Shown: positions 39,294-39,816 of the stretch, in pieces
Layout: the number at the start of each line of letters is the position of its first letter
How positions within the stretch are numbered: position 1 is the first letter of the stretch
Source of the DNA: Escherichia coli
GTDB taxonomy: Bacteria; Pseudomonadota; Gammaproteobacteria; Enterobacterales; Enterobacteriaceae
Direction: 5' to 3' (one strand)
DNA: 64,000 nucleotides
Assembly: GCF_003334335.1 (NCBI RefSeq)
Contig: NZ_QOWQ01000029.1
Position numbers and translations under genes: made by a program
Notes under the pieces: model-generated
Seen by the model: the letters and a program-made list of their open reading frames with translations, nothing else
Databases searched by the model: none
What the model was told of the DNA's origin: nothing

Positions 39294-39303
39294 CCATCAA
39301 CGA

Positions 39304-39330
39304 AAAAGCCCACATCTGTGGGCTTTCATG
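39304..39330. terminator. Rho-independent terminator downstream of ypjA
   Basis: AAAAAGCCCACATCTGTGGGCTTTC. Confidence 0.7.
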
Positions 39331-39453
39331 TTACCAGGAGCCGCGGCTCCTTTGCGTATCCTTTTATGTCTCCTCACCGTCTGGTCGGTGTTTTGCTGAG
39401 ACTTCTAACTTCCTGTTTTTGTTGGTGTTGTCCTTACACCGTCCAATCATGAT

Positions 39454-39816
39454 TGGTGGAGCTGGCGGGAGTTGAACCCGCGTCCGAAATTCCTACATCC
39501 TCGGTACTACATGCTTAGTCAGTCTTTACATTCGCTTGCCAGCTGCGGACGGACACGCCACTAACAAACTAGCCTGATTAAGTTTTAACGCTTCAACCCC
39601 AGGCAGGGCTTCCACGCGATCTCTTTTGGGTTTGACCTCTCTTGATCCCCGTCCTAAGAGCGGAGGCTAGGGAGAGAGGGCTCTAAGCAGGTTATTAAGC
39701 TGCTAAAGCGTAGTTTTCGTCGTTTGCGACTATTTTTTGCGGCTTTTTACGAGGCCAACCGCCCCTCGGCATGCACCTTGGGTTTCGCAAATCCCGTCGA
39801 ATCCAGAATCAGCCCC
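39454..39816 (-). ncRNA. ssrA: tmRNA (SsrA), 363 nt
   Basis: Reverse complement begins GGGGCTGATTCTGGATTCGACGGGATTTGCG and ends GGACGCGGGTTCAACTCCCGCCAGCTCCACCA; the ANDENYALAA tag reading frame is present. Confidence 0.95.

Follow-up and report, generated by a model that had tools for sequence, protein, structure and literature searches.

In Escherichia coli and Salmonella, two loci stand out as the most promiscuous for integration, and the tmRNA gene ssrA is one of them (Bobay et al. 2013, PMC3603311); a survey of Klebsiella found more than 50% of K. pneumoniae strains to be occupied at this gene (bioRxiv 10.1101/2020.11.02.365908). The corresponding concept of a 'virgin t(m)DNA locus', credited by later work to Williams (2003), refers to a gene followed directly by its conserved downstream context, which islands push to their own far end. 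In the reference strain E. coli K-12 MG1655 the site is taken: the 22-kb prophage CP4-57, running from intA to ypjF, lies between ssrA and the ypjA side, as the sequence-only reading of the DNA studied here had stated. Excision of CP4-57 is described as leaving an ssrA gene that lacks T357 (Wang et al. 2009, as cited in PMC10107115), and tmRNA without U357 was confirmed to be inactive (Onodera et al. 2022, PMC10107115). Similar excision scars have been listed for other islands (PMC10107115), and the addiction-like damage done to ssrA when an island leaves has already been noted (Onodera 2022, PMC10107115; Williams 2003, as cited there).

The tyrosine integrases of many islands and phages recombine within the last 20-40 nt of ssrA; this end is used by CP4-57, by P4-like satellites, by P2-like phages and by lambdoid phages, LLS and phiNP among them. 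The integrating element brings along a new ssrA 3' end and terminator, and the native flank, together with a fragment of the old ssrA 3' end, is displaced to the far side of the element. The unaltered arrangement reads, in order, an intact 363-nt ssrA, an element of about 118 nt, an intrinsic terminator and the convergent gene ypjA.

This is the order encountered in the 64-kb stretch of E. coli DNA analysed here (64,000 nucleotides, hereafter the window). We consider, with a probability of roughly 85%, that the ssrA 3' end of this K-12-like, phylogroup-A-like E. coli is a 'virgin' integration site, occupied by no element. As an instance of the ssrA hotspot the locus shows the gene and then directly the conserved downstream context, and no substantive difference from the published concept (PMC3603311; bioRxiv 10.1101/2020.11.02.365908).

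Organization of the ssrA locus

The window contains a full-length ssrA gene of 363 nt on the minus strand, encoding the tag ANDENYALAA (ARAGORN), which matches the Rfam tmRNA model RF00023 with 295.8 bits over model positions 1-374 of 374 and is 100% identical to K-12 ssrA (the K-12 match covers query positions 254-701 at 100%). The convergent gene ypjA stops with a TGA at 39291-39293 on the plus strand. Its start was taken from the way RefSeq annotates a genome that shares 99.96% identity over 18.7 kb, the longest open reading frame beginning earlier, at a GTG at 34584, and its name is that of the annotation in genomes 100% identical to the window at ypjA. The features of the locus are collected in Table 1.

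Table 1. Features at and around the ssrA 3' end, in window coordinates
Feature	Position	Strand	Basis or remark
ypjA (adhesin-like autotransporter YpjA/EhaD), convergent with ssrA	34713 (approximate start)..39293	+	ORF list and RefSeq annotation of relative
Intergenic flank, ypjA stop to ssrA 3' end, 160 bp	39294..39453	.	identical to K-12 ypjA-side flank
Predicted intrinsic terminator: hairpin AAAGCCCACA/TGTGGGCTTT, then U-run UUUUUCGUU on ssrA-sense strand	39305..39326	-	sequence and fold
Conserved ssrA-flank element, about 118 nt	39336..39453	-	nhmmer, alignment, RNAalifold, pair counts
Hairpin C	39337-39350		part of flank element
Hairpin B	39375-39390		part of flank element, within 39368-39402
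Hairpin A	39424-39440		part of flank element
A-rich stretch			part of flank element
YGTCY/RGACR repeats, 11 nt apart			part of flank element
ssrA (tmRNA), wild type	39454..39816	-	ARAGORN, Rfam, K-12 alignment
attB region in ssrA 3' end	39454..39491	.	K-12, phage comparison
Segment duplicated imperfectly by CP4-57	39454-39472		within attB region
phiNP core, 25 bp	39454-39478		within attB region
Match to attP core annotated in phage LLS	39472-39491		within attB region
T357 of ssrA (A on this strand)	39460	+	
smpB, conserved neighbour upstream of ssrA	40031..40513	-	ORF list, annotation

The sequence-only reading had placed about 160 bp with two hairpins between the ypjA stop and ssrA. The gap measures exactly 160 bp, and the hairpins are real: an inverted repeat at 39305-39326 with arms of 10+10 nt, an 8+8 palindrome at 39336-39351 and a 7+7 palindrome at 39443-39456; two more small hairpins, at 39375-39390 and 39424-39440, had gone unmentioned. 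The interval it assigned to the gap, 39294-39460, begins correctly and ends 7 nt inside ssrA, whose 3' end lies at 39454. It had also reported no integrase or prophage gene, which agrees with the open reading frames and annotation of the ypjA-ssrA gap and holds for this junction only, and it had asked for a partial ssrA 3' duplicate: a pattern search allowing up to three mismatches returned no second copy of the ssrA 3' end in the 64-kb window. With the flank directly contiguous with a complete ssrA, no integrase and no direct repeat of the ssrA 3' end, the attachment site is unoccupied, as had been stated.

The mature tmRNA 3' end is spanned by a perfect 14-nt palindrome, CCAATCATGATTGG (39443-39456; 7+7), which overlaps the CCA end of ssrA. 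The CCA end of the precursor could pair with the first bases of the trailer; the palindrome varies by clade, and a short complement to UCCACCA is often kept. Two small open reading frames of 28 aa each, one on the plus strand at 39366-39452 and one on the minus strand with its ATG just past the CCA, were rejected as genes since neither start codon nor frame is conserved in other genera.

Comparison with K-12 and the test for an excision scar

In MG1655, ssrA is followed by intA and the remainder of CP4-57 up to ypjF, by a degenerate 17-nt copy of the ssrA end, by the same 160-bp flank and by ypjA; the coordinates put ssrA and flank about 22.0 kb apart. Alignment with the two MG1655 junctions, which had been proposed as a check, resolves the window junction into two pieces, an intact ssrA 3' end and, attached to it, the flank that K-12 has beside ypjA, which matches without a difference through ...CCAATCATGAT. 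On the ssrA side 20.4 kb are 99.985% identical to K-12, and on the ypjA side 12.4 kb are 99.90% identical; the window is therefore the K-12 backbone without CP4-57, and its source strain is a phylogroup-A-like E. coli very close to K-12. The two junctions of CP4-57 (attL between ssrA and intA, attR between ypjF and ypjA) thus share with the window a backbone 99.9-99.99% identical, an identical ssrA and an identical or nearly identical 160-bp flank and ypjA. They differ in that 22.0 kb of prophage separates ssrA from the flank, that ssrA is followed by a terminator supplied by the prophage and that the degenerate repeat TGGTGG-GCTGGCGG-AGT adjoins the flank, all three being missing from the window.

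The displaced repeat discloses what excision from K-12 would produce. Read in the sense of ssrA, it ends ...CGCCAGC-CCACCA and lacks T357, whereas the ssrA 3' end of the window reads wild-type CGCCAGCTCCACCA with T357 present. A 42-nt junction query carrying the T357 deletion was used as a scar search. It matches exactly in DTU-1, a laboratory K-12 derivative without CP4-57, where ypjA, flank and a 362-nt ssrA are contiguous. This actual excision product (DTU-1; PMC10107115) resembles the window in the contiguity of ypjA, flank and ssrA and in the absence of a prophage, and differs from it in its 362-nt ssrA devoid of T357, with inactive tmRNA, against 363 nt and wild-type sequence in the window, from which the scar CGCCAGC-CCACCA and the 362-nt gene are absent. 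That the source genome once had CP4-57 and lost it by IntA/AlpA-mediated excision could be argued from flanks nearly identical to those of K-12 and from the known ability of this prophage to excise (PMC10107115). Both the displaced copy in K-12 and the real product DTU-1 show, however, that excision from the K-12 configuration removes T357 (PMC10107115), and we regard such a loss as highly improbable.

An empty site bearing the T357-deletion scar and a 362-nt ssrA was seen in two genomes, DTU-1 (locus L006, 6012-6373) and SK0832 (locus L008, 6013-6374), the latter a natural B2 faecal isolate of E. coli. Given the published K-12 result for ssrA lacking T357, SK0832 should be devoid of tmRNA activity and should depend on ArfA. 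Scarred ssrA genes do occur in natural isolates. The other T357-deleted matches mostly mark the distal boundary of an integrated element, where they are displaced copies; a P2-like prophage in KL53 is one such case.

A second type of occupant is found in a near-identical relative, SCPM-O-B-9504, whose flanks are 100% identical to the window and whose site holds a P4-like satellite. Its displaced copy reads CGCCAGC-----CA, a deletion of 5 nt, and the corresponding excision scar is likewise absent from the window, where the ssrA end is wild type. With T357 kept and no 5-nt deletion, the window is not an excision product of the element types present in its closest relatives. Islands at ssrA were thus observed to keep an imperfect displaced copy of the 3' end, with T357 deleted in CP4-57 (locus L003, 2621-2637) and 5 nt deleted in the P4-like satellite (locus L252, 12440-12470 and 23280-23300), so that site-specific excision would damage ssrA.

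The last nucleotides of ssrA consequently serve as a test of history: for CP4-57 and P4-like satellites, a wild-type end separates sites that were never occupied from sites that were vacated. The sequence-only reading had left a choice between a prophage never acquired and one precisely excised. The wild-type end without scar favours the first option with regard to CP4-57-type elements, and some likelihood stays with the second for an element flanked by perfect repeats, which would leave no trace after excision, so that 'never occupied' is not provable. The window is a virgin ssrA site or one vacated by a perfect-repeat element; it is not a K-12-type excision product. Candidates for such a traceless past occupant are P2-like, Fels-2-like or SopEPhi-like phages, phiNP and LLS-like phages.

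Frequency of the empty site

The junction was found empty in 2,532 of 5,426 complete E. coli genomes (47%) and occupied in 53%, as counted with a 160-nt query centred on the junction and matched end to end. A longer query of 371 nt, intended to count contiguous ypjA, flank and ssrA, was dropped because occupied genomes exceed 80% coverage as well, through their displaced junctions. Samples of evenly spaced rows (10 of 40; 3 of 12) put the share of genomes that reproduce the window's ypjA, flank and ssrA arrangement exactly at about one in four; in a similar share, by the same kind of sampling, the flank adjoins ssrA and something else lies beyond. B2 strains such as AZ161 belong to the latter, with glaH beyond the flank and the block matching window 28654-39302 missing.

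Strains whose flanks are 100% identical to the window occur both empty and occupied, the occupied near-twins carrying a 10.8-kb P4-like satellite that encodes an integrase, Psu, Ogr/Delta and a primase-helicase. The empty attB in ssrA is a known polymorphism at a known hotspot, and its observation is accurate but ordinary: in itself the empty site matters little, being the state of about half of E. coli genomes at a classic integration locus. To the idea that faulty assembly produced the junction by collapsing a prophage out of the contig we attach a negligible probability: the same uninterrupted junction occurs in the 2,532 complete genomes, and several of these share 100% identity with the window over 24.9 kb.

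A conserved flank downstream of ssrA

The sequence between ssrA and ypjA is conserved far outside E. coli. A scan with the 40-mer of the ssrA 3' end, taking one genome per species, returned 120 loci, in about 40 of which the sequence past the ssrA end is homologous to the window flank, with identities from 91% down to about 70%. These loci belong to Escherichia, Citrobacter, Klebsiella, Trabulsiella, Pluralibacter, Kosakonia and Mangrovibacter, and also to Mixta (Erwiniaceae) and to Photorhabdus and Xenorhabdus (Morganellaceae). In nearly all of them the flank adjoins a full-length ssrA; the few in which it adjoins an ssrA fragment of 44-48 nt represent the occupied state, as in K-12. The homology ends just past the terminator hairpin, whose own sequence differs by clade. 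Within the window nhmmer finds a single match to the element, at 39336-39463.

No Rfam 15 family matches 39336-39453, even at permissive E-values; besides tmRNA, the further matches reach at most 22 bits, far below threshold, and lie outside the element. A limited literature search yielded no description of an RNA encoded beyond the ssrA 3' end or in the ypjF-ypjA interval. At this locus K-12 is not typical: its ssrA ends on a prophage-supplied terminator with the native flank 22 kb off; if the flank has a role at the RNA level or in recombination, work on K-12 would have missed it.

In the E. albertii type strain (locus L012, 1918-2029), the flank shows a 16-nt deletion that removes TTTGCGTATCCTTTT, and the usual terminator hairpin is absent. 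The left part of the element is thus dispensable in at least one lineage.

Predicted terminator and possible RNA structure

The G+C-rich hairpin nearest to ypjA is directly followed on the minus strand by the T-run listed in Table 1, as in a Rho-independent terminator, and is kept with compensatory changes. This predicted hairpin is the first terminator after ssrA and, from its sequence, probably also ends ypjA transcripts; a simple, strict terminator scan of the window did not list it. Hairpin and minus-strand T-run recur at this position, with differing sequence, in most aligned taxa and are missing in Trabulsiella (locus L101), the E. albertii type strain and Kosakonia quasisacchari. Because no terminator intervenes between 39453 and 39326, ssrA transcripts are expected to include the flank: transcription would run through it to the terminator, and the flank would form a 3' trailer of about 150 nt on the tmRNA precursor.

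RNAalifold, applied to 12 copies from Enterobacteriaceae and Erwiniaceae together with that of phage LLS, returned three small hairpins and the terminator with a consensus energy of -33 kcal/mol and eight pairs showing compensatory changes. Across all 26 taxa the same program gave essentially no single consensus fold, only clade-level folds being upheld, and the Morganellaceae display an alternative helix in the flank. The hairpin at 39375-39390 is kept in 26 of 26 taxa with stems as different as CACCG/CGGTG, GGTG/CACC, GCTG/CAGC and ACTGTCA/TGACAGT. When the structure was drawn by hand, 72% of cells pair, against 33-47% in slid controls, a comparison that favours the structure since it was drawn from the same sequences. 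Both strands of the flank fold about equally well in terms of energy; the strand was therefore assigned from the U-run and from the helices that form, in which G.U pairs modestly outnumber A.C pairs. A role as CsrA sponge through GGA motifs was considered and rejected, the best site not being conserved in Photorhabdus.

The 3' external transcribed spacers of tRNA operons, such as 3'ETS-leuZ, act as RNAs. As proposed for the ssrA flank, 3'ETS-leuZ is a structured segment downstream of a stable RNA gene with an intrinsic terminator at its end; a comparable release of the ssrA flank by 3' processing is suggested by analogy only. We tentatively propose, as one possibility among several, that the element of about 118 nt and its terminator may constitute a functional module conserved in Enterobacterales. 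It would serve either as a structured 3' trailer or sRNA that the tmRNA precursor gives off, or as an arm for recombination or retroregulation; temperate phages would have copied it into their attP sites, and it would have escaped notice as CP4-57 separates it from ssrA in K-12.

Phages and prophages carrying the flank

Carriage by phages was judged only from genomes deposited as phage records; contigs of IMG/VR containing the flank were set aside as evidence because phage copies are inseparable there from host flanks inside prophage calls. At the annotated attP of phage LLS (PQ299149), opposite gene 31, int and xis, one finds the terminator, the flank and a 'tmRNA pseudogene' of 39 nt, with 86.8% identity to the window over 188 nt. 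Parts of the flank are carried by phages phiNP (OR565852) and Ayreon and by the PhiR12 phages, the published description of phiNP mentioning a 25-bp identity only; P2-like phages carry just the 38-nt ssrA end and no flank. The attP sites of LLS and phiNP accordingly resemble the window in the succession of terminator, flank element and ssrA 3' end (25-39 nt) at 84-87% identity, and differ from it in that the ssrA part is a fragment followed by phage DNA with the integrase (in LLS gene 31, integrase and excisionase). ETEC4088 has a lambdoid prophage with a copy of the flank on either side, the two copies being in direct orientation; the host copy adjoins ypjA and has a 33-nt ssrA fragment, and the second copy adjoins the complete ssrA.

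Phage Ayreon (locus L131, 3501-3607) has the flank element but no ssrA fragment, and a different, P4-like integrase lies about 450 bp away. The element can thus travel in phages independently of the ssrA core.

These phages bear on the history of the window. An earlier occupant with perfect repeats (a P2-like phage, phiNP or an LLS-like lambdoid phage) might have been lost cleanly, either because it excised or because the phage-borne and host-borne copies of the 160-bp flank recombined homologously; the flank itself may then be partly phage-derived. Elements that restore the wild-type end exist (Table 1 of PMC10107115), free phages carry the flank at attP and ETEC4088 exhibits two direct copies around a lambdoid prophage; since phages carry the flank at attP, the copy in the window could be a fossil phage arm left by such a loss. 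A Pin-type invertase fragment and the ypjCB pseudogene just upstream of ypjA, with a Fin invertase near attP in LLS, and the absence of the whole 10.6-kb ileY-ypjA block from B2 strains point in the same direction. On the other hand, the locus shows no direct trace of such an occupant, its flank is only 86.8% identical to the LLS copy, and its 96-97% identity to the flank of B2 strains without neighbouring phage remnants fits vertical descent. We rate this history as rather unlikely and retain a virgin ssrA site as the preferred reading.

The same phages raise the question of what the flank does. Rather than an RNA trailer of ssrA, it might be mainly a DNA recombination arm that holds arm-type integrase sites and sites of IHF type, or a retroregulator that acts on phage int in the manner of sib, a reading suggested by its motifs that we hold to be doubtful. 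Four to five YGTCY (RGACR) motifs occur in 94 nt, in one orientation and with a spacing of 11 nt, a density about 16-20 times the background (0.26 per 100 nt in the window overall), and one or two similar motifs are found in the int-proximal arm. In LLS the core separates the flank from int and xis, gene 31 lying between core and int, and the flank thus has the position of the P arm and of sib in lambda. The analogy with sib is weak, the flank stems having only 5-6 bp, too short for a classical RNase III site. Moreover, host copies without a nearby prophage retain 70-77% identity from E. coli out to Photorhabdus and Xenorhabdus, which a role confined to attP does not explain, and the stems change in sequence yet keep their pairing, unlike protein-binding sites. 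The flank could be a host trailer and terminator copied by phages so as to maintain ssrA expression, a recombination arm, or both.

Neighbourhood of the locus

A block of 10.6 kb between glaH and the ssrA flank (window 28654-39302) is absent from B2-type strains, in which glaH lies about 330 bp plus the flank from ssrA. It contains an amylase-like pseudogene, a tRNA gene at 31602, the ypjCB pseudogene, a Pin-type recombinase fragment, an ORF of 39 aa and ypjA, and its breakpoint, at 39299-39303, coincides with the foot of the terminator hairpin. As B2 strains lack the block, an arrangement in which ypjA abuts ssrA is not ancestral either.

Just upstream of ypjA, at about 32428-34305, lie likely prophage remnants, the ypjCB pseudogene (DUF5507) and a fragment, 168 nt long, of a Pin/Fin-type serine invertase. 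At the matching position relative to the flank, tail-fibre genes and a Fin/Pin invertase are present in both LLS and the ETEC4088 prophage. An LLS-like lambdoid prophage formerly resident in ssrA may have left the ypjCB-pin-ypjA block as the fossil of its right end.

The tRNA gene at 31602-31677 is called tRNA-Met (anticodon CAT) by ARAGORN, and the identical gene is annotated in RefSeq as tRNA-Ile, corresponding to ileY in K-12; its CAT anticodon is read as Ile after lysidine modification. Other Rfam matches in the window are MicA (2559-2630), naRNA4 (CssrE; 9228-9305), the Phe leader (57686-57811) and RyfD (61117-61255), whose positions fit the K-12 gene order from micA/luxS to beyond pheA.
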